From Raja brachyura (Eukaryota), in assembly GCA_963514005.1 (NCBI GenBank), contig OY740786.1:68014001-68078000 (forward strand): a DNA stretch of 64,000 nucleotides. The letters run 5' to 3'. Below are positions 1 through 46,825 of this stretch, piece after piece. Position 1 is the first letter of the stretch, and each line of letters starts with the position of its first letter. Under the pieces are notes generated by a model. The model was not told the DNA's origin. It saw only the letters and a list, made by a program, of their open reading frames with translations, and made no database searches. The translations under genes were made by a program, and so were the position numbers.

Positions 1-210
1 TGATCGTCGTTGCTGGCTTTGATCTGCCTTTTTGCATGTCTTTCATTAATTCGTTCTATTTACCTTTTCATAATCTCGATTCCCTCTCCCCTGACTCTGT
101 CCAAAGAAGAGTCTCCACCCGAAACGTCACCTATTCCCTTTCTGCAGATGCTGCCTGACACGCTGAGTTGCTCCAGCTTTATGTATCTATCTTCCAGTTC
201 CTTCACAAGT
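1..210 (+). mobile_element. 3' terminal repeat fragment of a Penelope-like element
   Basis: AAGAAGAGTCTCCACCCGAAACGTCACCTATTCC...GATGCTGCCTGA resembles the termini of the PLE copies at 12580 and 52400. Confidence 0.7.
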
Positions 211-4518: not shown

Positions 4519-5514
4519 AACCCCTGTCTCACGGTGCGAGTCCGCCCACGAGTGATCCCGAGTTTAAAATAAATCAAACTCGTGGTAATCACGTAGAATT
4601 AACGTAGCAGGAACGTCAGAATTCGTGGACGTAACTTAGCGACTCGTAACGCTAATGGCAGGTACTCGGGAAACTTGTTAACTCGTGAAATTTCCACAAG
4701 TCAAATTTACTCTTGAAGTAAAATGTTTAAACTCGTTGTAAGAACGCAGTAGCCCGTGGGTTTTCCGTAGTGTCTCGTGAGTCTACTGTTGGCACTCTTT
4801 AACTCAGCGGGACAGACAGCCAAGCTGGCAGCATCTCTGGAGAGAAGGGTCAAAATGTTTTTTCAGTTTGAAGAAGGGACTCGACCAGAAACATCACCCA
4901 TTCCTTCTCTCCAGATATGCTGCATGTCGCACTGAGTTACTCCAAAATTTTGTGTCTCTCTGCGGTGCAAACCAGCATCTGCAGTTCCTCCCGCCACAAA
5001 ACAGCCTATGTCTTTCAATGATTGATGCCACACCTTGAACAAATACAGTTCAAATGGACTTTTGAATGCAATTTTGGAAGAATTGTTTCTTGAAACAAAC
5101 TGCTCTAAAAGTTTGAAGGAAGGAATTGCAGATACTAGTTTAAACTAAAGATAGACACAAAATGATGGACTAACTCAGCTTGTCAGGCATCATCTCTGGA
5201 GAAAAGAAATAAGTGATGTTTTGGGTCGAGATTGTTCTTCAGGCTGGGTCTTTTTATAGTGTAAAAAAACTGCATGACATTTTTACCATGTGATGATTTT
5301 TCCACGCGTCAGTAGTTGTTGGCTCAAGAGTAACTCGGGAGAGGAACTTGGTACATCGCACAAAAGAGAAGTAAATGGCAAACTTAGACATACACGTGGG
5401 AACTCATTTAAACTCATGAACATAAACTTGGAATCTCGTAGACAACCACGAGTTTGATTTTTTTCTTTCATTCGGGATCACTCGTGTGTGGACTCGCACC
5501 GTGAGACAGGACCA
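4519..5514. mobile_element. PIF/Harbinger-like MITE with nested short repeats
   Basis: Long imperfect TIRs (CCTGTCTCACGGTGCGAGTCC...CACGAGTGATCCCGA...AAATCAAACTCGTGGT and its reverse complement at about 5445-5510), set in TTA/TAA context. Confidence 0.7.
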
Positions 5515-11497: not shown

Positions 11498-12670
11498 GAA
11501 TTTCCGTTTACCAATACTCTCCTCCGCCTAGCAGAGCTGGTCCTTACCCTCAACAACTTCTCCTTTGACTCCCCCCATTTCCTCCAAATCCAATGGCACT
11601 CGCATGAACCCTAGCTGTGCCTGCCTCTTTGTAGGGATGATCCCTGACCCAGGCGTACCTGCCCTATCCCCGAACTCTACCTCGGTTACATTGACGACTG
11701 CATTGGTGCTACCTCCCGCACCCATGCAAAATTCACTGACTTCCGGCACTGAAATTCACCTAGACCATTTCCGACATATCCCTGCCGTTTCTAGATCTCA
11801 CAGTCTCCATCGCAGGTAACAGACTACTGACCGACATCTACTACAAACCTACTGACTCCCATAGCTATCTTGACTACACTTCTTCCCACCTTGCTTCCTG
11901 TAAAGACTTCATCCCCTACTCCCAATTCCTCCGTCTACGCCGCATCTGCGCCCAGGTTGAGGTGTTCCATACTAGGGCATTGGAGATCTCATTCTTTAGG
12001 GAACGGGGGTTCCCCTTTTCCATTATAGATGAGGATCTCACCGGGGTCGTCTCTATATCTGCTCCGCTCTTACTTCCCCTTCCCTATTTATAAGAAGGAC
12101 AGAGTCCCCCTTGTCCTCGCCTTCCATCGCATACAACATATAATCCTCTGACATTTTCCCCACCTCCAATGGGATCCCACTACTGGCCACATCCTCTCGC
12201 CTCAATCCCTTTCTGCTTTCCGCAGAGACCGCTCCCACCGTAACTCTGGTCAACTCGTCCCGGCCCACCCAAACTACCCCTTCCCCAGGTACTTTCCCCT
12301 GCATCCGCAGGAGATGCAATACCTGTACCGTTACCTCCTCCTCTCCTCCATCCGAGGACCCACACCGTCTTTCCAGGTGAGGCAGAGGTTCACTTGTACC
12401 TCCTCCAACCTCATCTACTGCATCCGCTGTTCCAGGTGTCAACTTCTCTACATCGGCGAGACCAAGTGCAGGCCCGCCGATCGTTTCGCTGAACACTCCA
12501 TCCCCTCCCCTTCCCAGTTCTCCCACTAGCCTTTGTGTCTCCGCATACATTCTATCTTTGTCCCGCCCCTGACATCAGTCTGAAGAAGGGTCTTGACCCG
12601 AAACATCACCCATTCCTTCTCGCTATAGATGCTGTCTCCCCACACTGAATTACTCCAGCTTTTTGTGTCT
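11498..12670 (+). mobile_element. Degenerate Penelope-like element (RT C-terminus plus GIY-YIG)
   Basis: YIDD-type RT remnant and SSNLIYCIRCSRCQLLYIGETK; terminal repeat at 12570-12670. Confidence 0.9.
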
Positions 12671-14392: not shown

Positions 14393-17157
14393 ACTGTCGC
14401 ACTGTCATTCACCAGCACGCCATTATCATAAGTAATTCACTCATTGTTTAAATAATTTGACCAAATAAACAGTGAAATGATCGACACTAAAATAAAACAT
14501 ATAATCATTTATTTCCCCAATTTATTTGGTTGCATTACATCTGATCTTCATCTGAATATTCTTCATCATATTCCAAGTCTTTTGATAAGTTTTGATAAGT
14601 CCATTGATAAGTAAGTTCAAGTGGAGGGTCAGGCAGAGGCTACAAAAAAACCCATCTGATAGTCATTAAGTCAGCATAGACTTCAATTCATAAAATTCCA
14701 GCCCCTTCTTAATGTTAAAGAGAATAACACTGTTACTACCAAAGATAAATTAGTTCAAGTTCACATACACCAATTCATTTCTACATAAACATCAGCCATT
14801 TCTGACCATTTCTCACTCCAATGGAAGCCTATAAAGTGTAATGAATATTCGTCTGTTTTTCTCCCGCGGTCGGGGCCTAAAAACGGCCGCTACGGACGGC
14901 CCTATGTACAGCCCCCCCCCCCCCCCCAACGGACATGATCCAAACACACTGCGCGGCTCCGCGTTCGCGAATCGGCCGCTTCTTAATTGAGACCGCGGCT
15001 TCACTATGTTAAGTACATAGTGTATAATACTTAATAGTACATTAAGCCCTGCGATCGGAGCACTTGTATGCGGTAAGTTATCGCATCAGCTCCGAGATTA
15101 GATGTTAAAGACTTATTAGACTACAACAAGCTGGCATTAGTGACAATGCTTAATTTACCTTGTTATGGATACACATAGTTTAGGCCCTCAACTTCATGAA
15201 TTAATTGAGTGAATGAGCAAATGAATGAGCGGATGAGTGAGTGAGTGAATGAATGAGTGAATGTACAGTCTCCAAATCTCATTTTTTCACATTATAAAGG
15301 GTCTTCTTCTTTTCGTGTCCATCTTGTTACAAATGTTGGCCTTGCTGTCATTGTCAGTCCTGAAAAGGACGCAAGCTTCTGGCGACAATCAATGGAAGCC
15401 ATCACTTGTCGCAATAGATGATGGTGGTAGCAGAATTAGCTCGGGATACTTCCAGTTTCCAGCCCCGCGACATGGACGCTTCTGCTATGGGGCCACATTA
15501 TAAAGGGTGCAATTAAATTAATTAAAGTCCATACAGATTAATTTTCATAAATTCAGACTTTAGATCTTACCTTCCAGTTGATTCACAAAGTTTGACTGGT
15601 TTCACAACTTTGTGTTGCAGCATCTCAGCAGCGACTTTGCTTTCAAGACTTTCTACCACTTAGCTGCACATTCTTCAGACTTCTTAATGCTCTTCTCACT
15701 AAATTCAATTACCCTGATGCAAGTTTCCACGACATGTATTCCACAGAACTACAAAGAACCTTCATCGGAATCTCCAGTAAAACAGGCATCAGTGAAGTCC
15801 TCTCAGCCATGTTGTGTGCTCCCTGCCTAGCTAGCCTGAAACAAAGCACGTGATTGGCCAACTGGCATACAACTCAATGTTAAACGTGCTTTGATTGGAC
15901 TCAAAACACCCAAAAATCTTCTGGTTTTTCTCTAATTTAATAAAAATGTGCAAGTCTTGTTCTTGTCGAGTTTCAGGGGTGATTTATATAATATTTTTGC
16001 ACAATATGTGAAAATGTCATGTAGTTCTGTGACTTGGGTCACGAAACATTGGAATAAAGCTCCTCGGCCCACAGCCTACTACCGATATACGGCTAATTGG
16101 TCTATAATTCCCCGTTTTCTCTCTCCTTTCTTAAAAAGTGGGGTTACATTGGCTACCCTCCAGTCCACGGAAGCTGATCCATAGTCGAGAGAACAGTGGA
16201 CAATGATCACCAATGCATCCACGATTTTTAGGGCCACCTCCTTGAGTACTCTGGGATGCAGACCTTCAGGCCCTGGGGATTTATCTGCCTTCAGTCTCAA
16301 CAGTTTACCTAACACCATTTCCTGACTAATGTGGATTCCCTTCAGTTCCTCCCACTGGATCCTCGGTCCCCTAATATTTCTGGGAGATTGTTTGTGTCTT
16401 CCTTGGAACCAAAGTAGTTGTTTAACTGTTCTGCCATTTCCTTGCTTCCCATTATAAATTCACCTGTCTCTGATTGTAAGGGACCTACATTTGTCTTCAC
16501 AAATCTTTTCCTTTTTCCATATCTAAAGAAACTTTTAGAGTCAGTCTTTATATTCCCCGCAAGCTTTCTTTCATGCTCTTCCTCCCCCCCCCCCCCCCCC
16601 CCCTTAACTAACCCCTTTGTCCTCTTTTTTGAGTTCTAAATTTCTTCCAGTCCTCCGGTTTGCTGCTTCCTCTGGCCAATTTATATGTCTTTTCCTTGGA
16701 TTTAAAGATCTATGGAATTTATTGATCACCTTTATGCATGGGTTGACCTGTTAAGATGGCCTATTTGCAACATTTTTCACTTTCCATACTTTTTCGTGTT
16801 TCTATTGTCGCATTTTGTGCCACTGATTTTATTTTGTAGCTTATTCCATTGCCCTTCCCTGTTTTGCATTGTGTACAAATTTTGATTCCATTTTTTAACA
16901 ATGCAGATAAGGAACCATATAAATGGACAGCATCATTTGTAAATGACATGTATCTACTTTGATGCTATTAAGCTCAGGTGTTAATGGTGTCAAGCTCGGT
17001 ATATCAGTCATTTACTGATTAGGTCCAAGAATTTACACGTACACAGTTGGAATTACCTATAGTATACAAGATTATGTTATATCAAACACAATCCTATTAA
17101 AATATTTTTGTTACTTTCAGGTGTAATGTGTAAATATACGATCTTTATAACTCTTAA

Positions 17158-20673: not shown

Positions 20674-21459
20674 GTAAATTAATAAGCTGTAAAAAACATT
20701 TTAAATATTGTACACAATATATAACTAGATAAGTTGTACATTTCTAATCTAATCAACTTTGCACAAGTGGTCTTTATATTTTCATAATTATAAGTGACAT
20801 TCATTTCTTGACCATTTTGCTTGCTTTTCATCTAAAAAATCAGTGCTGGAGTAATTCAGCGGTTCAGGTAGCATCTCTGGAGAACATGGATAGGTGACGT
20901 TTTGGGTCGGAACCCTTTTTGAGACTAATTGTGGGTGGGTGCATCCTACCCAAAACTTCACTCATCCTAACAACTAATACAAACATAACTCGAAATGGCC
21001 ACTAGTTTGTGTATGAAATTAAATCCCATACAATCTGGAGCAGTTTAATTTTAATTAATCTTTGTTTGTCATATTAATATGTTTAACTCAATTTTTATTG
21101 CATGATAATAAATTTCTTTGCCTGTTTAAAGATTAACGGTTAAAGATATACTCACATTCTGTTACAAGTTTACTCCTAAGAATAAGGTGGAAAATTGTAA
21201 TGCTGCTAGAATCCAATGCTGTCCATGACTGCCCAGGTACTTTTGAGTCCTTGTGCACACTCCACCTAGGAGAATGATTGCTTTCCAAAGCCTGACGGTA
21301 TGCAACCTTGTGTCAGGTGTTAGTTGGTTTTGAAAAAAATATTTTGAGTTCTCCCAGACCTGGATGGGCAGGCCTGCCTCTTTATACATAGTTATCCAAA
21401 GTTCTTTGCATCAGCATGTAAATACACTATTATATATATATATAACCATTTGTCCTGTA

Positions 21460-24305: not shown

Positions 24306-25755
24306 CAGGGCTCGAAATTAGTGGTTGCCCAGGTGCCAATGGCAACCTACAGTCCCGCCGGGCAACGTAAAAGAAGGGTCTCGACCCGAAACGTCGCCTA
24401 TCTCCTTCGCACCTTAGATGCTGCTGCACCCGCTGAGTTTCTCCAGCCTTTTGTGTACTGGCAATAAAACTCACGTGATTCTTGACTTGGACTTAAGCAA
24501 AAAAGGGTTCTTGGGGGGGAAAAAAAGCTACCTTAAATTTAGTTGCGTCTGGTTGGTACCTATGGTAGGGTGAAGACTATTCCATGCTTTAATTGTGCGG
24601 GGGAACTCCATAGAGCAGCCAGCATCTCTGGATAGAAAACATTGGGTGACGTTTCGGGTAGAAACCCTTCCTTACATTTCCTCTGGTTTTAGTGTTTTTA
24701 GTTTAATTAAAAGATACAGCGTGGAAACAGGCCCTTCGGCCCACCGAGTCCACGCCGACCATCGATCACCCGTACTATCCCACACATCAGCGACGTAAGC
24801 CAAGACTTTTATTCTCTCACGGCGCAGTTAGAACAATGAAATCCTTACTTGCAGCAGCACAACAGAATATGTAAACATAGTATTCTGTAAACAATGTTAT
24901 AAATGAGAAAACAAAACTCCATACAGACAGCACCCATATTCAGGATCAATTCCGGGTCTCTGGCAATTTTAGGCAGCAATTTTATGGCCAGTGTACTGCC
25001 CCAATAGCCTTGAACTGAATTAAAACATACAGTAGCTGTGAAGGGGGACATAGCGTCACTTAGAAATTTCAGACTGAAAATGGATATTTTTTTTTTAGTG
25101 ACCAACGTATAACTCAACGTATAATTTTTTGTTTGTTGAAAAATAAAATATAGTGGCACAGTTGGTGGACTTGCTGCCTCACACGCCAGAGATCTCTTCG
25201 ATCCTGTTCTCGGGCACTGTCTGTGTTGAATTTGCACATTCTCCCTGCAAGCATGTGGCTTTCCTCCCACATTGGCTTTGTAGGTTAACTTGTCTCTGTA
25301 AAATTGCCCCTAATGTGCAGGGAGTGGGTGAGGAAAGTGGGATAACAGAACTTGTGTGAATGGGTAGACAAAAATGCTGGAGAAACTCAGCAGGTGAGGC
25401 AGCATTCAGGTCGAGACCCTTCTTCAGACTGATGTCGGGAGGGGTGGGGGCGGGAAAAAGAAAGGAAGAGGCGGACAGTAAGCTGTGGGAGAGCTGGGAA
25501 TTGGAGGGGAAGGAGGGAGAAAGCAAGGACTACCTGAAATTGGAGAAGCCAATGTTCATACCACTGGGGTGTAAACTACCCAAGCGAAATATGAGGTGCT
25601 GTGCCTCCAATTTACGGTGGTCTGGCCATGGAGGAGACCCAGGACAGAAAGGTCGGATTCGGAATGGGAGGGGGACTAAACTGTCATTTGGCAACCTAAA
25701 AAGCTGCCGAGGTTGCCCGGCTGGCTACAGGGAAAAAAGTTAAGCGAGAGCCCTG
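24306..25755. mobile_element. hAT-like non-autonomous element with 5-bp TSD and nested SINE/PLE fragments
   Basis: Termini CAGGGCTC and GAGCCCTG; subterminal GGTTGCCC/GGCAACC motifs at both ends; CTCTC duplicated at 24301-24305 and 25756-25760. Confidence 0.72.
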
Positions 25756-39659: not shown

Positions 39660-41196
39660 AAATGGAAAGGATACTTGGAGATAATATATATAAGCATCTG
39701 GATAAACAGGGTCTGATCAGGAACAGTCAACATGGATTTGTGCCTGGAAGGTCATGTTTGACAAACCTTCTTGAATTTTTTAAAGAGTTTACTAGGGAAA
39801 TTGATGAGGGTAAAGCAGTGGATGGTGTCTATATGGATTTCAGTAAGGCCTTTGACAAGGTTCCCCATGGAAGGTTGGTTAAGAAGGTTCAATCTTTGGG
39901 TGTTAATGGCGGAGTAGCAAGATGGATTCAACAGTGGCTGAATGGGAGATGTCAGAGAGTAATGGTGGATGGCTGTTTGTCAGGTTGGAAGCCGGTGACC
40001 AGTGGGGTGCCTCAGGGATCTGTGTTGGGTCCACTGTTGTTTGTCATGTACATCAATGATCTGGATGATGGGGTGGAAAATTGGATAAGTAAGTATGCAG
40101 ATGATACTAAGATAGGTGGTGTTGTGGATAATGAAGTAGATTTTCAAAGTCCACGGAGAGATTTGGGCCATTTGGAAAAGTGGGCTGAAAGATGGCAGAT
40201 GGAGTTTAATGCTGATAAGTGTGAAGTGCTACATCTTGGCAGGACAAATCAAAATAGGCCGTACATGGTAAATGGTAGGGAATTAAGGAATGCTGTGGAA
40301 CAGAGGGATCTAGGAATAACTCCATCTGCCATCTTTCAGCCCACTTTTCCAAATGGCCCAAATCTCTCCATAGACTTTGAAAATCTACTTCATTATCCAT
40401 AACACCACCTATCTTAGTATCATCTGCAAACTTACTTATCCAATTTTCCACCCCATCATCCAGATCATTGATGTACATGACAAACAACAGTGGATCTAGG
40501 AATAACTGTGCATAGTTCCCTGAAGGTGGAATCGCATGTAGATAGGGTGGTAAAGAAAGCTTTTGGTGTGCTGGCCTTTATAAATCAGAGCACTGAATAT
40601 TGGAGTAATGAAGTAATGTTAAAATTGTACAAGGCATTGGTAAGACCAATTCTGGAGTATGGTGTACAATTTTGGTCGCCTAATTATAGGAAGGATGTCA
40701 ACAAAATAGAGAGACTACAGAGGAGATTTACTAGAATGTTGCCTGGGTTCCAGCAACTAAGTTACAGAGAAAGGTTGAACAAGTTAGGTCTTTATTCTTT
40801 GGAGCGCAGAAGGTTAAGGGGGGACTTGATTGAGGTCTTTAAAATGATGAAAGGGATAGGCAGAGTTGACGTAAGCTTTTCCCATTGAGGTTAGGGAAGA
40901 TTCAAACAAGAGGGCATGACATGAGAATTAAGGGACAGAAGTTTAGGGGGTAACATGAGGGGGGACTTTACTCAGAGTGGTGGCTGTGTGGAATGAGCTT
41001 CCAGCAGAAGTGGTGGAGGCAGGATCGATTTTAACATTTAAAAGTAAAGTGGATAGGAATATGGACCGGAAGGGAATGGAGGGGTATTGTCTGAGTGCAG
41101 GTAGATGGGACTAGGGGAAAATAAATGGTCGGCACGGACTGGAAGGGCCGAGAGGGCCTGTTTCCGTGCTGTAATTGTTATATGGTTGTATGGTTA
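39660..41196 (+). mobile_element. CR1 LINE with an internal inverted duplication
   Basis: ORFs 39662..40402 and 40490..40888; (ATATGGTT)-like tail at about 41180-41196. Confidence 0.93.
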
Positions 41197-41617
41197 AAAA
41201 GATAGAATAACTCATCGGGACAGGCAGTATCTCGGGAGAGAAGGAACGGGTGGCTTTTCGGGTCGAGACCCTTCTTGTGCCTATTTAAACCAGCATCTGC
41301 AGTTCTTTCTTACACATATTCTGAGTAGGATGAATGAGGTTTCCGTTCCCATTAAATATAACTACTACATATTGTGCATGTTGCAAATGTCAGCCAGCAC
41401 CTTAGCAAAATACACATTTCATATTTGCCTTTTTGATCCATGTTTGAAAAAGTGATGTTCACAAATTATGACTAGTGCCTCAAATCTGCCCTGCATCATC
41501 CTAGAAATTTGCAAATGGAAAATAAATGTGAAGTAGACAATGATTTCTGCTCTCTGTGAAGTTTGGTCTCCAATAAAACTTCCATTTGTATAATATGAAT
41601 TTTGCATTATTTTCTAG

Positions 41618-42740
41618 GAGTGAAAACTCAGATTTACGTCCTGCAGACCAAGCAGGAAAATCAAAAGAGCGACCAGTGGAGATATCCAGTGCATCAAGCT
41701 CAACATTGAAAACACAGCACCATAGACGTGTGCTCTGCTTTGATCACACATCTTCCACAGAATCAGGTCAACCAACCATCGAATCCAATGCTAGTCAAGA
41801 AAAGGAGGAAAATTGTGCAGATAATAAAAGTCAACCGGACAGACTATTTGTTTTCCAAAACAAGGAGCGATCTGAAAGGACAGATGCAGGAATTAATAAA
41901 GGGAGAGAAATACAGAGCAAGTCCGAGAAAAATAAAAATTCATCTTCAGGACCACCTCATGATTCATTCCACAAAGCAACAGCAAATAAGGAAAACGAAG
42001 CAATCAGGGACCAGGTTAGACAAAGAAGTAGAGAAACTTCAGATCCTTCAAATGCACAGATGCAAAAAAAAGGCAATCAAAGTGACCGACCTAATTCTCA
42101 GACAGATGTGCCGAAGGATGGCGTAAGCAAAATTCCCGAGTCTCATCAAGAAAGCAAAAAGGTAAACACTGCTCTTGTGGTCTCCACAGATATTGCTTCT
42201 AAAAGGAATGCAGATAAAAGTGATAGTTTTAGTCTGACGAGCACATTGACCAAACAGGCGGCCGAAATGCTCCAAGACATGCAGAGGCAAAGCCCTGTCC
42301 CAAAACAAACTAGCAATGGCGACTTGTGTGCGCCCAGGACACCAGGCTCTGCTTTACATGAAAGTCCAGATGATTGTTTGGATGTTCAACAGACTCCACT
42401 AAATAAAGGGCATGGAGATGAAAGGGCATCGCCGAGAGTAATGATACCTCCTACAACCCCAGACATACCAACGTGTAGCCCGGCAAGCGAAGCAGGAAGT
42501 GAAAACAGTGTTAGTATGGCTGCACACACACTCATGATTCTCTCAAGGGCAGCGATTGCAAGGACTGCTGGTACCACACCTCTGAAAGATAATACACGTC
42601 AAATCAAATCACCACTTAGCCAGACAAAGAAAAGAAAGCTGGACGAACAGGAGGAAGAATATAAACAGCAATCTTTATCCAGCAAGACAGACCTTCAAAA
42701 TTCCAATTCTCCTGGAAGGAAGAAAAGGTCAAAGTCACAT
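41618..42740 (+). CDS. NPAT: NPAT exon 17 (C-terminal conserved region)
   Basis: Lies within ORF 41586..42833; acceptor ttctag, donor GTAAGT; 1123 nt; HRRVLCFD, ANKENE, LTKQAAEMLQD, PRTPG and SPASEAGSENSVSMAAHTLMILSRAAI. Confidence 0.95.
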
Positions 42741-43484
42741 GTAAGTTTTGTAATTCAGCAGCTTGGTAACAGTAAAGCATATTCTATCAATCAATACATA
42801 CAACAACATTGTAGCAGTGTAACATTGAATTAAATCCAGAAAAGTTATGTAATGTTTTTAGTGAAGGTAAAAAAATTGCAGAATCATGGTAGGATACTAA
42901 GAATTGTAGAGGAAGAGAGGCAATGCATGACCATAGATCCCTGAAGATAGCAGGACAGGTCGACAAGGTTGCTAAGAAGACAAGATGATTACTTATTTCA
43001 GCTGAGACAACAAATCAAGAACAGGTAAGTATGAAATATAGATTGTTTGGCACTGAAACAGTGCACTTTGCCTATGCTAGTGGGAAATGCAGCTCGTTTT
43101 AATGGACCCCTTTATAACTGATTTTGGATATAGCAGATTGACCTGCCGACCCACTCCTGGCTCGCACCATCTCCCCGGCTGTTTGGAGCCCCTGCTTCCG
43201 ACATAATCCCCGACTTAGCATGGTGCACCGGCGAGCTGTGGTGACATGGCTATTGTGGTGGCCCACGCTGTAGCCTCTGAGGACAGTGTTTTCTCAGGGC
43301 CGCCGCCACCAACAGGAAGTGCTTGGTCACCGTGGGGCTCCCTCTTCTCACCTGCAGCTTTCTGTCAGCGGTGGCTCTTTTGCCGCCGCCTCCTCCAATC
43401 GCTCTGTCCACTTGGTCTCTCCCAATCACAATCCCTTGAACCAATGAAGAAGGGCTTGCTGGTGCCAGCAGCATCAGCGCCTAG

Positions 43485-46400
43485 TGAAATCCAAGTGGTG
43501 TTGGGTAAATTGAATGGATTAAAGGCCGATAAATCCCCAGGGCCAGATAGTCTGCATCCCAGAGTACTTAAGGAAGTAGCCCCAGAAATAGTGGATGCAT
43601 TAGTGATAATTTTTCAAAACTCTTTAGATTCTGGAATAGTTCCTGAGAATTGGAGGGTAGCTAATGTAACCCCACTTTTTAAAAGGGGAGAGAGAGAGAA
43701 AACGGAATTACAGACCAGTTAGTCTAACATCGGTAGTGGGGAAAATGCTAGTCAGTTATTGAAGATGGGATAGCAGCACATTTGGAAAGTGGTGAAATCA
43801 TTGGACAAAGTCAGCATGGATTTATGAAAGGTAAATCATGTCTGACGAATCTTATAGAATTTTTCGAGGATGTAACTAGTAAAGTGGATAAGGGAGAACC
43901 AGTGGATGTGTTATATCTGGACTTGCAGAAGGCTTTCGACAAGGTCCCACATTAGAGATTAGTATGCAAACTTAAAGCACACGGCATTGGGGGTTCAGTA
44001 TTGATGTGGATAGAGAACTGGCTGGCAGACAGTAAGCAAAGAGTAGGAGTAAATGGGTCAGTTTCAGAATGGCAGGCAGTGACTAGTGGGGTACCGCAAG
44101 GCTCAGTGCTGGGACCCCAGCTATTTACAATATATTATTAATGATCTGGACGAGGGAATTGAATGCAACATCTCCAAGTTTGCGGATGACACGAAGTTGG
44201 GGTGCAGTGTTAGCTGTGAGGAGGATGCTAGGAGAATGTAAGGTGACATGGATAGGTTGGGTGAGTGGGCAGATGCAGTATAATGTGAGGCTATTTACTT
44301 TGGTGGCAAAAACAGGAAAGTATTATCTGAATGGTGGCCGATTAGGAAAAGGGGAGTTTTCCTAATCGAGACCTGGGTGTCATGGTACACCAGTCATTGA
44401 AAATAGGCAGGGTTACACAAAAAGCTGGAGAAACTCAGCGGGTGCAGCAGCATCTAAGGAGCGAAGGAGATAGGCGACGTTTCGGGTCGAGACCCTTCTT
44501 CAGACTGGTCAGGGATCAGGGAAACGAGAGATATAAACAGTGATGTGGAGAGATAAGGAACAATGAGTGAAAGATATGCAAAAAAGTATTGGTGATAAAG
44601 GAAGCAGGCCATTGTAAGCTGTTTGTGGTGTGAAAATGAGAAGCTAGTGGGGGGGGGGGGGGGGGGAGAGGAGATGGAGAAGGAATGTCAGGGCCAGAGG
44701 GCTGAGGGAGAGGTTGGGGGGGAGGCAGTCTGGGTTAACAGAATTGAGAAAATTCAATGTTTAAGCCCAGAGGATGCAGACTCCCCAAGCGGAATATGAG
44801 GTGCTGTTCCTCCAACTTGCGGTGTTGATCACTCTGGCCGTGGAGGAGGCCCAGGACCGAGAGGTCGGATACGGAGGGGGAGTTGAAGTGCTGAGCCACC
44901 GGGAGGTCGGGTTGGTTATTGCGGACCGAGCGGAGGTGTTCGGCGAAACGATCGCCCAGCCTGCGCTTGGTCTCACCGATGTAGATCAGCTGGCATCTGG
45001 AGCAACGGATGCAGTAGATGAGGTTGGAGGAGGTGCAGGTGAACCTCTGTCGGACTTGGAATGACTGCTTGGGTCCCTGAAAGGATTGGATGGGGGAGGT
45101 GAAGGGACAAGTGTGGCATCTCTTGCGGTTGCAAGGGAAAGTGCCCGGGGAAGGAGTGGAGCGGGAGGGAAGGGAAGAATTGACGAGGGAGTTGCGGAGG
45201 GAGCGGTCTTTGCGGAAGGCAGACGGGTGGAGATGGGAAGATGTGGCGAGTGGAGGGGTCACGTTGGAGGTGACGAAACTGGCGGAGGACTATCTGTTGT
45301 ATGCGCTGGCTGGTGGGGTGAAAGGTGAGGACCAGGGGGACTCGGCCCTTGTTGTGAGTGGGGGAATGGGGAGAGAGGGCAGTGTTGCGGGGTATGGAGG
45401 AGACCCTGGTGCGAGCCTCATCTATAGTGGGGGAGGGGAAACTCCGTTCTCTGAAGAACGAGGACATTTGCGATGACCTGCTGTGGAACACGTCATCCTG
45501 GGAGCAGATGCGGCGTAGACGGAGGAATTGGGAATAGGGGATGGAGTCCTTACAGGAAGCAGGGTGGGAGGAAGAGTAGTCCAGGTAGCTGTGGGAGTCA
45601 GTTGGTTTGTAGTGGATGTCAGTCAGGAGTGTATCACCTGCAATAGAGATGGTGAGGTCAAGGAATGGTAGGGAAATGTCGGAAATGGTCCAAGTATATT
45701 TGAGTGCCGGATGGAAGTTGGTTGTGAAATGGATGAAGTCAGTCAGTTCTGCGTGGGTGCAGGAGGTGACACCAAAGCAGTCGTCAATGTAACGGAGGTA
45801 AAGATCGGGGATGGGGCCCTGGTACGCCGAGAACAAAGATTGTTCGACGTGCCCGACAAAGAGGCAGGCGTAGCTAGGGCCCATGCCTGTGCCCATAGCT
45901 ACGCCTTGTGTTTGGAGGAAATGGGAGGAGTCAAAAGAGGGTTACACAAAAAACTGGAGAAACTCAGCGGGTGCAGCAGCATCTAAGGAGCGAAGGAGAT
46001 AGGCGACGTTTCGGGTCGAGACCCTTCTTCAGACTGTTTGAAGAAGGGTCTCGACCCGAAACGTCGCCTATCTCCTTCGCTCCTTAGATGCTGCTGCACC
46101 CGCTGAGTTTCTCCAGCTTTTTGTGTAACCCTCGATTCTCCAGCATCTGCAGTTCCTTCTTTAACAAGGAGTCAAAAGAGAACAGGCAGTGAAGAAAGCA
46201 AATGGTATGTTAGCATTCATAGCAAAAGGATTTGAGTATAGGAGCAGGGAGGTTCTACTGCAGTTGTACAGGGTCTTGGTGAGACCACACCTGGAGTATT
46301 GCATACAGTTTTGGCCTTCTAATCTGAGGAAAGACATTCTTGCCATAGAGGGAGTACAGAGAAGGTTCACCAGACTGATTCCTGGGATGTCAGGACTTTC

Positions 46401-46825
46401 ATATGAAGAAAGACTGGATAGACTTGGCTTGTACTGGCTAGAATTTAGAAGATTGAGGGGGGATCTTATGGAAACTTACACAATTCTTAAGGGGTTGGAC
46501 AGGCTAGATGAAGGAAGATTGTTCCCGATGTTGGGGAAGTCCAGAACAAGGGGTCACAGGTTAAGGATAAAGGGGAAGTCTTTTAGGACCGAGATGAGAA
46601 AAACATTTTTCACACAGAGGGTGAATCTGTGGAATTCTCTGCCACAGAAGGTAGTTGAGGCCAGTTCATTTGCTATATTTAAGAGGGAGTTAGATGTGGC
46701 CCTTGTGGCTAAAGGGATCAGGGGGTATGGAGAGTTCAGGATACTGAGTTGGATGATCATATTGAATGGCGGTACAGGCTCGAAGGGCTGAATGGCCTAC
46801 TCCTGCACCTATTTTCTATGTTTCT
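43485..46825 (+). mobile_element. CR1 LINE interrupted by a Penelope-like element
   Basis: DKSPGPDSLHPRVLKE through HQSLK at 43485-44409; resumes at about 46183 (KKANGMLAFI) and runs to the TTCTATGT tail. Confidence 0.93.
44410..46182 (-). mobile_element. Penelope-like retroelement (RT plus GIY-YIG endonuclease) with pseudo-LTR repeats
   Basis: ORF 44973..45896 (MGTGMGPSYACLF, YLRYIDDCF, FLDLTI) and ORF 44735..45262 (SSNLIYCIRC..YIGETKR.L..RF.EH, GLN) are joined by one frameshift. Near-identical terminal repeats at 44410-44507 and 45939-46036, plus an inverted copy. Confidence 0.94.

Follow-up and report, generated by a model that had tools for sequence, protein, structure and literature searches.

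A truncated Penelope-like element in the last intron of NPAT

The window analysed here is a 64,000-nucleotide stretch of the genome of Raja brachyura (contig OY740786.1, positions 68,014,001 to 68,078,000), and coordinates refer to this window. Its forward strand carries the penultimate coding exon of NPAT at 41577-42740 (Pfam NPAT_C, 41580-42833, E 1.9e-80) and the last exon near 49410-49492. A Penelope-like element (PLE) lies antisense within the last NPAT intron, where it interrupts a host LINE fragment, presumably CR1-like, on the forward strand at 46181-46791, of which there are many uninterrupted copies at other loci. At the insertion junction 11 nt of the host LINE are missing and a duplication of host DNA is absent. 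A separate 177-nt inverted repeat (40030-40494, 98% complementary, 111 nt between arms) is found in a LINE reverse transcriptase (RT) fragment upstream of the NPAT exon.

On the minus strand, the PLE comprises a 5'-truncated open reading frame (44735-45938) for the C-terminal half of the RT, a CX4CxxC linker and a GIY-YIG endonuclease, as judged from translation, Pfam (GIY-YIG, E 1.8e-4) and alignment to L192, an intact genomic copy. The linker, CNRKRCHTC, lies upstream of GIY-YIG and fits CX2-5CxxC, which in that position is described as a mark of Neptune and Nematis elements (PMC8557442). In the alignment the copy at 44409-45938 begins in mid-RT, at +2530 of the 3971-nt unit, and its frame differs from that of L192 by a 2-nt deletion near 45224, which causes a frameshift, and a 6-nt deletion near 44873. 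The initial annotation of a young Penelope-like element is borne out by identity to L192 at 1509 of 1528 nt (98.8%), and the locus is a dead, 5'-truncated, frameshifted copy. The frame is followed by the remaining pseudo-LTR (pLTR) or 3' UTR (44504-44734, minus strand), which ends in an initiator-like sequence, CC-A-GTCT. Next comes a minimal type I hammerhead motif of the 3' pLTR (44476-44503, minus strand), with C3 at 44503 and cleavage predicted at 44476, after C17. Beyond it, a stretch at 44409-44475 (minus strand) has the 3' strand of helix I (GCC), the 5' leader, a probable start of the ORF (ATG, 44453) and, at +94 from C3, the short tail end, which is one of two fixed 3' ends in the family. 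The 5' ends of the family cluster at positions equivalent to 44501-44511.

At the truncation point the RT fragment adjoins a 228-nt head-to-head palindrome (arms 45937-46034 and 46036-46133, 98% complementary). Its short arm (45939-46036, minus strand) starts 4 nt before C3, holds a hammerhead at 46005-46032 and ends at the short tail site, and its inverted arm (46036-46166, plus strand) ends at the long tail site (+128) and holds a third hammerhead (46038-46065, plus strand), in which C3 is changed to U and which was overlooked in the initial annotation. A 14-nt duplication of the first bases of the RT fragment (46167-46180, partner 45926-45939, minus strand) flanks the palindrome in the manner of a target site duplication. 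Hammerheads had been placed in both terminal repeats of the element; the two motifs are indeed present, but the upstream repeat is not a 5' pLTR, its 99 nt joining mid-RT directly. Since this upstream repeat is a palindrome arm, only the 44476 copy lies in a true pLTR, and a pLTR flanking a PLE frame is found for that copy as well as in intact units, L192 among them. The 44476 and 46005 copies are antisense in the pre-mRNA of NPAT, the only sense copy being the C3U hammerhead inside the hairpin.

A known minimal hammerhead motif

Both minus-strand copies, at 44476-44503 and 46005-46032, read CTGAAGAAGGGTCTCGACCCGAAACGTC (in order CTGAAGA, A, GGGTC, TC, GACCC, GAAA, C and GTC). The search with type I hammerhead models or descriptors that had been proposed as a check gave a divided result. 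The relaxed pattern CTGANGAN{5,30}GAAACGT found both copies, with 2 matches in the window versus a mean of 0.01 in 100 shuffles, and the Rfam hammerhead models were silent over the region, with zero matches both under the gathering cut-off and when E was relaxed to 10; an E-value scan of the region with Rfam returned hairpin-driven miRNA models only. In the standard hammerhead numbering (C3-A9, G12-A14 and C17), each copy carries CUGAAGA, GAAA and GUC, which are the CUGANGA and GAAA boxes with an NUH triplet. An extra A lies between positions 9 and 10.1, the G10.1-C11.1 pair is present, helix II is GGGU/ACCC with a CUCG loop, and helix III consists of A15.1-U16.1 and the palindromic C15.2-G16.2 (A-C-G-U), loop 3 being absent. 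Helix I (AGT/GCC) is weak, as the initial annotation had pointed out, with 2 bp only, U-G and G-C.

This anatomy matches the published minimal type I hammerhead (min-HHR) of Penelope-like pLTRs, as had been supposed. The min-HHRs of metazoan PLEs described in PMC4209133 share with the motif here the boxes, the extra nucleotide after A9, G10.1-C11.1 and the loopless palindromic 15.2-16.2 pair, as well as the position in the pLTR and the occurrence mostly as single motifs, with some opposite-strand pairs. Low dimer activity is reported for that class, whose genomic copies are described as single and opposite-strand. Fish rows in supplement file 2 of that paper (CUGAAGAA ... C G U C) resemble the motif here, and cartilaginous fish are not named in that file. 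Helix II has 4 bp and a 4-nt loop here, whereas 7-8 bp are described for Schistosoma, and helix I has 2 bp, whereas 4-5 bp are described, with 2 bp only in D. virilis (PMC4209133). The motif is already known from Penelope-type elements, and the present family is one addition to the class described in 2014.

Twelve more occurrences of the motif, belonging to this family or to older ones and either decayed or truncated, are scattered over the window (101-128, 1650-1723, 4868-4895, 5215-5242, 12580-12607, 20896-20923, 24368-24395, 24648-24675, 25400-25427, 41252-41279 and 52400-52427). The one at 52400 closes an older Penelope-like copy on the plus strand that is ~75% identical at 51154-52239, and another older Penelope-like copy occupies 11564-12496.

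The family in the genome

The 28-mer motif has 50,608 exact copies in the genome (control 0), whereas thousands of varied copies are described in PMC4209133. The relaxed pattern gave 159,563 matches genome-wide (control 300), a tail 31-mer 70,586, the 28-mer extended 18 nt upstream 14,349 and a 29-mer from the 5' ORF 222. With a 5'-ORF pattern, 41 matches in 40 loci were obtained, 5 of them with an intact frame of 1152-1153 aa, and at five loci (L164, L166, L184, L186 and L192) hammerheads 3.97-4.05 kb apart mark intact pLTR-ORF-pLTR units. The 1153-aa product of L192 matches RVT_1 (E 2e-4) and GIY-YIG (E 1.6e-3), both matches falling under the Pfam cut-offs. The family has the features of EN+ PLEs, namely a single ORF of RT and C-terminal GIY-YIG, partial tandems, an inverted 5' copy and an optional 30-40 bp tail, and would be of Neptune type, the CX4CxxC linker motif being the one character used for this assignment. 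Insertions of EN+ PLEs (Arkhipova et al. 2013, PMC3846280; Craig et al. 2021, PMC8557442) are described with the same head-to-head inverted 5'-side copy, one-sided tail of 30-40 bp, partial tandems and target duplications; unlike those, the upstream repeats here are 98 and 131 nt long, stop at the 5' edge of the hammerhead and join a mid-RT truncation.

L192 (G000:C4:85302900-85309900, minus strand) has a predicted 122-nt phase-0 GT-AG intron at +161..+283, between a first exon of 37 codons and the 1153-aa frame; the genomic copies examined retain this intron. Its joint was not found among the joints listed when RNA contigs from 4 of 24 runs were compared with L192:4600-6300.

Ends of genomic copies were mapped in the first 100 tail matches listed, which lie within the initial 2.9 Mb of a single contig, the hammerhead not being a criterion. 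The 5' end fell at -8..+2 of C3 in 53 copies, beyond -300 in 25 and at -145 to -71 in 2, these last being the only copies that start between -9 and -295; the remainder began at +4..+22 (16 copies), at +28/+29, the cut site (2), and at +34/+37 (2). At the 3' end, 60 copies were short (+86..+106) and 40 long (+120..+128). The same 5' end is seen in 11 of the 41 5'-ORF copies (-7..+4), though their cDNA was initiated hundreds of nucleotides further downstream, and loose ends of RNA contigs at -3/-4 in two runs, which may be DNA, agree with this pile-up. A flanking duplication of at least 8 nt within 60 nt was present in 23 of 47 short solo copies. Close head-to-head pairs combine one long and one short tail in 29 of 32 cases, with two long tails in 2 and two short in 1 (p ~1e-6), the pairs being partly non-independent, with two duplicates and several from one locus; of 12 informative pairs, just 7 have arms with a variant haplotype in common, which speaks against the account proposed below. 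Among 67 solo copies, 28 have a G immediately before the 5' end where 18.9 would be expected (p 0.012; compared with other truncations, 8/32, p 0.08), and the preceding base genome-wide is G in 1815 and A in 1602 cases, both mixed with palindrome junctions. A weak enrichment of non-templated G, the signature of a cap, is suggested by these counts.

Copy starts at the predicted cut site

If cleavage set the end of the template, copies would be expected to start at the cut site. No excess of such starts was found, either among the 100 tail-anchored copies (2/100) or genome-wide, where 245 copies start exactly at the predicted cut site and 231 at +32, the one control position used. A SINE of 190 nt with an HDV/CPEB3-like ribozyme at its head (417 exact pattern matches) served as positive control: all 26 of 26 copies have no common sequence upstream of the predicted cut, and an adjoining duplication was found in 16 of the 26. 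In this SINE the ribozyme sets the template end and marks the genome clearly, so that such a mark is detectable, and the hammerhead leaves none. The test is blind to cut RNA that is religated or never serves as template. Since the PLE copies start just before the motif and not at the cut site, the RNA was likely copied uncut, and likewise the templates that integrated were, as far as their copies tell, likely uncut.

The window itself contains one such SINE-like element of ~190 nt, headed by an HDV-like ribozyme, at 15303-15500 on the minus strand. It has a GAA-rich tail and a target duplication of 14-15 nt, and is nested in another repeat. Its ribozyme matches the mammalian CPEB3 model of Rfam at 36.5 bits (cut-off 35); no paper on the element was among those listed in a literature search, and the element offers a clue to where the CPEB3 ribozyme may have come from.

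Proposed origin of the copies

In the best account, to which we give a probability of roughly three in four, the locus carries the known minimal type I hammerhead of an abundant Neptune-type PLE in a dead copy, with the upstream motif predicted to be locked in a hairpin and the templates uncut. On balance we also favour a more specific course of events, in which a capped transcript would open with the hammerhead, as its first ~31 nt, and be copied uncut; the insertions of 100-135 nt, of which there are tens of thousands, would be run-offs comparable to the strong-stop DNA of retroviruses, made from two internal RT starts, one per nicked strand. Under the best account, the element RNA would begin ~3 nt before C3, at the initiator-like CC-A-GTCT, and RT would initiate inside the ORF, either at +92-94 or at +128. 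Starting from whichever of these sites it meets first on an RNA, RT would run off the 5' end after 100-135 nt to give the short copies, and from a downstream tandem unit it would give long copies such as 44409-45938. The palindrome would consist of two run-offs, one per site, placed head to head at CAG-N-CTG. Integrated templates would be uncut, and any cleavage would be weak, protein-assisted or dimer-dependent, and confined to transcripts of intact tandem units. If the more specific course is correct, a full-length copy would come only from the start site of a downstream unit, and the tandem layout would therefore be needed; the genome would then record, at the level of single nucleotides, that template ends are not set by the hammerheads of PLEs.

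By analogy, the two fixed 3' ends match the two internal RT starts of an Anolis element. In Poseidon of Anolis carolinensis (Frangieh et al. 2024, PMC11167929), RT is described as initiating in vitro at two internal positions within the start of the ORF, with both strands nicked and extended, and the two elements share two fixed 3' ends ~35 nt apart inside the ORF start. They also share a hammerhead at the pLTR-ORF junction and ends at the cut site that are unseen, RNA-seq reads ending there being absent according to that report. The Anolis hammerhead cleaves only with protein, and its mutants leave in vitro insertion unaffected. The ATG lies 50 nt after C3 here but inside the core in Anolis Poseidon, and the predicted 122-nt intron and the CX4CxxC RT-EN linker of Neptune/Nematis type set the present family apart from it. 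Catalysis has been shown, with protein, for Anolis Poseidon.

A transcription start in the pLTR is known from D. virilis, where it lies 46 nt before an intron (PMC2377424), though not at the hammerhead edge. Our literature search, which covered titles and abstract openings, found no report of 5' ends piling up at the hammerhead edge; supplements might hold one. The role of the hammerhead in PLE mobility is called unclear in PMC8557442 and its preprint. The present family is a large natural dataset in which integrated templates appear uncut, with their ends immediately 5' of the core; this argues against cleavage defining the template and agrees with the in vitro result for Anolis. A single dead locus makes a poor test construct, to which an intact tandem unit such as L192 is to be preferred.

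Non-LTR retrozymes (PMC7229834; bioRxiv 10.64898/2026.07.22.740005) likewise have a type I hammerhead, are PLE-related and are described from one chondrichthyan genome. They are tandem arrays with a hammerhead in each non-coding unit, whereas the locus here is a truncated coding copy with a palindrome. Identity as a retrozyme was rejected, as an RT-EN coding fragment lies between the co-oriented copies and the third copy is inverted.

Alternative explanations

The 28-mer may instead owe its retention mainly to a role as promoter or as binding sequence for a protein where the transcript begins, catalysis being vestigial in the family. We regard this as doubtful, and it is compatible with the best account given above, not opposed to it. 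Conservation of the motif bears on it directly. At non-CpG positions of the 100 copies the core differs at 6/770 versus 30/944 for the rest of the motif (p 3e-4), a contrast that is due to an 11-copy subfamily (helix II U-A to U.G, a loop change, and GUC to GUU); in the main subfamily of 89 copies the figures are 6/699 versus 8/855 (p 0.55), as under neutral decay. An older-family set, consisting of the 85 copies with diverged 3' flanks out of 327 anchored copies, has as its commonest base that of the motif at all 28 positions, loop included, with the next 20 nt varying by family, and its core is set off from non-core by just p 0.04 (86/850 versus 120/935). These features favour retention as sequence, as does the nature of the helix changes. 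Two-sided (compensatory) changes at family level were not found in the 85 older copies, which have one-sided changes only, and in their helix I of 2 bp the first pair is U-A in 55 and U.G in 17, the second G-C in 56, and the third position mostly an A-C mismatch (49/85). On the other hand, the family-level changes either preserve pairing, as with U-A to U.G in helices II and I, or respect the NUH rule, as with GUC to GUU, and the Anolis motif cleaves with protein, with C3/G8 rescue reported (PMC11167929). Judging from these comparisons, source elements keep the motif under constraint, constraint on RNA structure and on sequence being inseparable in this genome. An extended, bulged helix I was rejected as inconsistent across families.

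It is unlikely that the 5' pile-up reflects a stall of RT, or a 3' splice site with its pyrimidine tract and CAG|TCTG, rather than a transcription start. The sequence upstream is acceptor-like, and the D. virilis intron is described as ending at the 5' end of helix I (PMC4209133). However, the short copies have no upstream exon in common and many adjoin a target duplication with 0-6 extra nt. The ends also scatter over ~10 nt with no single junction, which speaks against splicing but not against a stall.

Less likely still, the hammerhead would cut in intact tandem transcripts and religated circles would serve as templates, so that the copies look uncut. Such a model was put forward in PMC4209133, intact units with hammerheads 3.97-4.05 kb apart exist, and the subfamily changes spare the core. 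Circles would, however, have no end 3 nt before C3, where 53 of 100 copies stop, and an excess at the cut site is absent; this would be a minor route at most.

The two copies cited in the initial annotation had also been proposed to dimerise within one transcript. RNA folding predicts a hairpin of 98 bp (-210 kcal/mol) for the palindrome. Since minus-strand read-through RNA carries the inverted arm, the helix II pairing probability of the 46005 copy falls to ~1e-19 (0.002 without the arm), and that of the 44476 copy is 0.013. Helix II is self-complementary and its intermolecular duplex is favoured (-16.9 versus twice -3.4); the dimer fold reaches -6.7 versus -22.3 kcal/mol for the best cofold. 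These figures are equilibrium predictions without protein or Mg2+. That 46005-46032 and 44476-44503 pair via ACGU in one minus-strand transcript, are cut after GUC and free a 1.5-kb RNA is thus predicted to be very improbable, even though both motifs are intact, in the same orientation and 1529 nt apart, and dimeric and trimeric min-HHR constructs are reported to have low activity (PMC4209133), for the copy is truncated, its upstream motif is buried in the hairpin, the locus is antisense in an NPAT intron, and the freed piece would have no ORF start and be frameshifted. For the family as a whole the dimer idea may hold, with intact tandem units placing two hammerheads ~4 kb apart.

Other copy forms

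Some copies start at +2 and therefore have no C3 and U4, among them L109, L111, L112, L161, L175, L177, L183, L187, L188 and L081; AG precedes 12 of 17 such copies. In others (L162, L167, L169, L177, L179, L181, L183 and L196) the first 430-770 nt of the element are combined with a second short hammerhead-tail unit. Splicing was rejected as the source of these chimeras, as their junctions differ by nucleotide and donor sites are absent. Their break points group near +540..+590 from C3, which suggests a further RT start or jump site.
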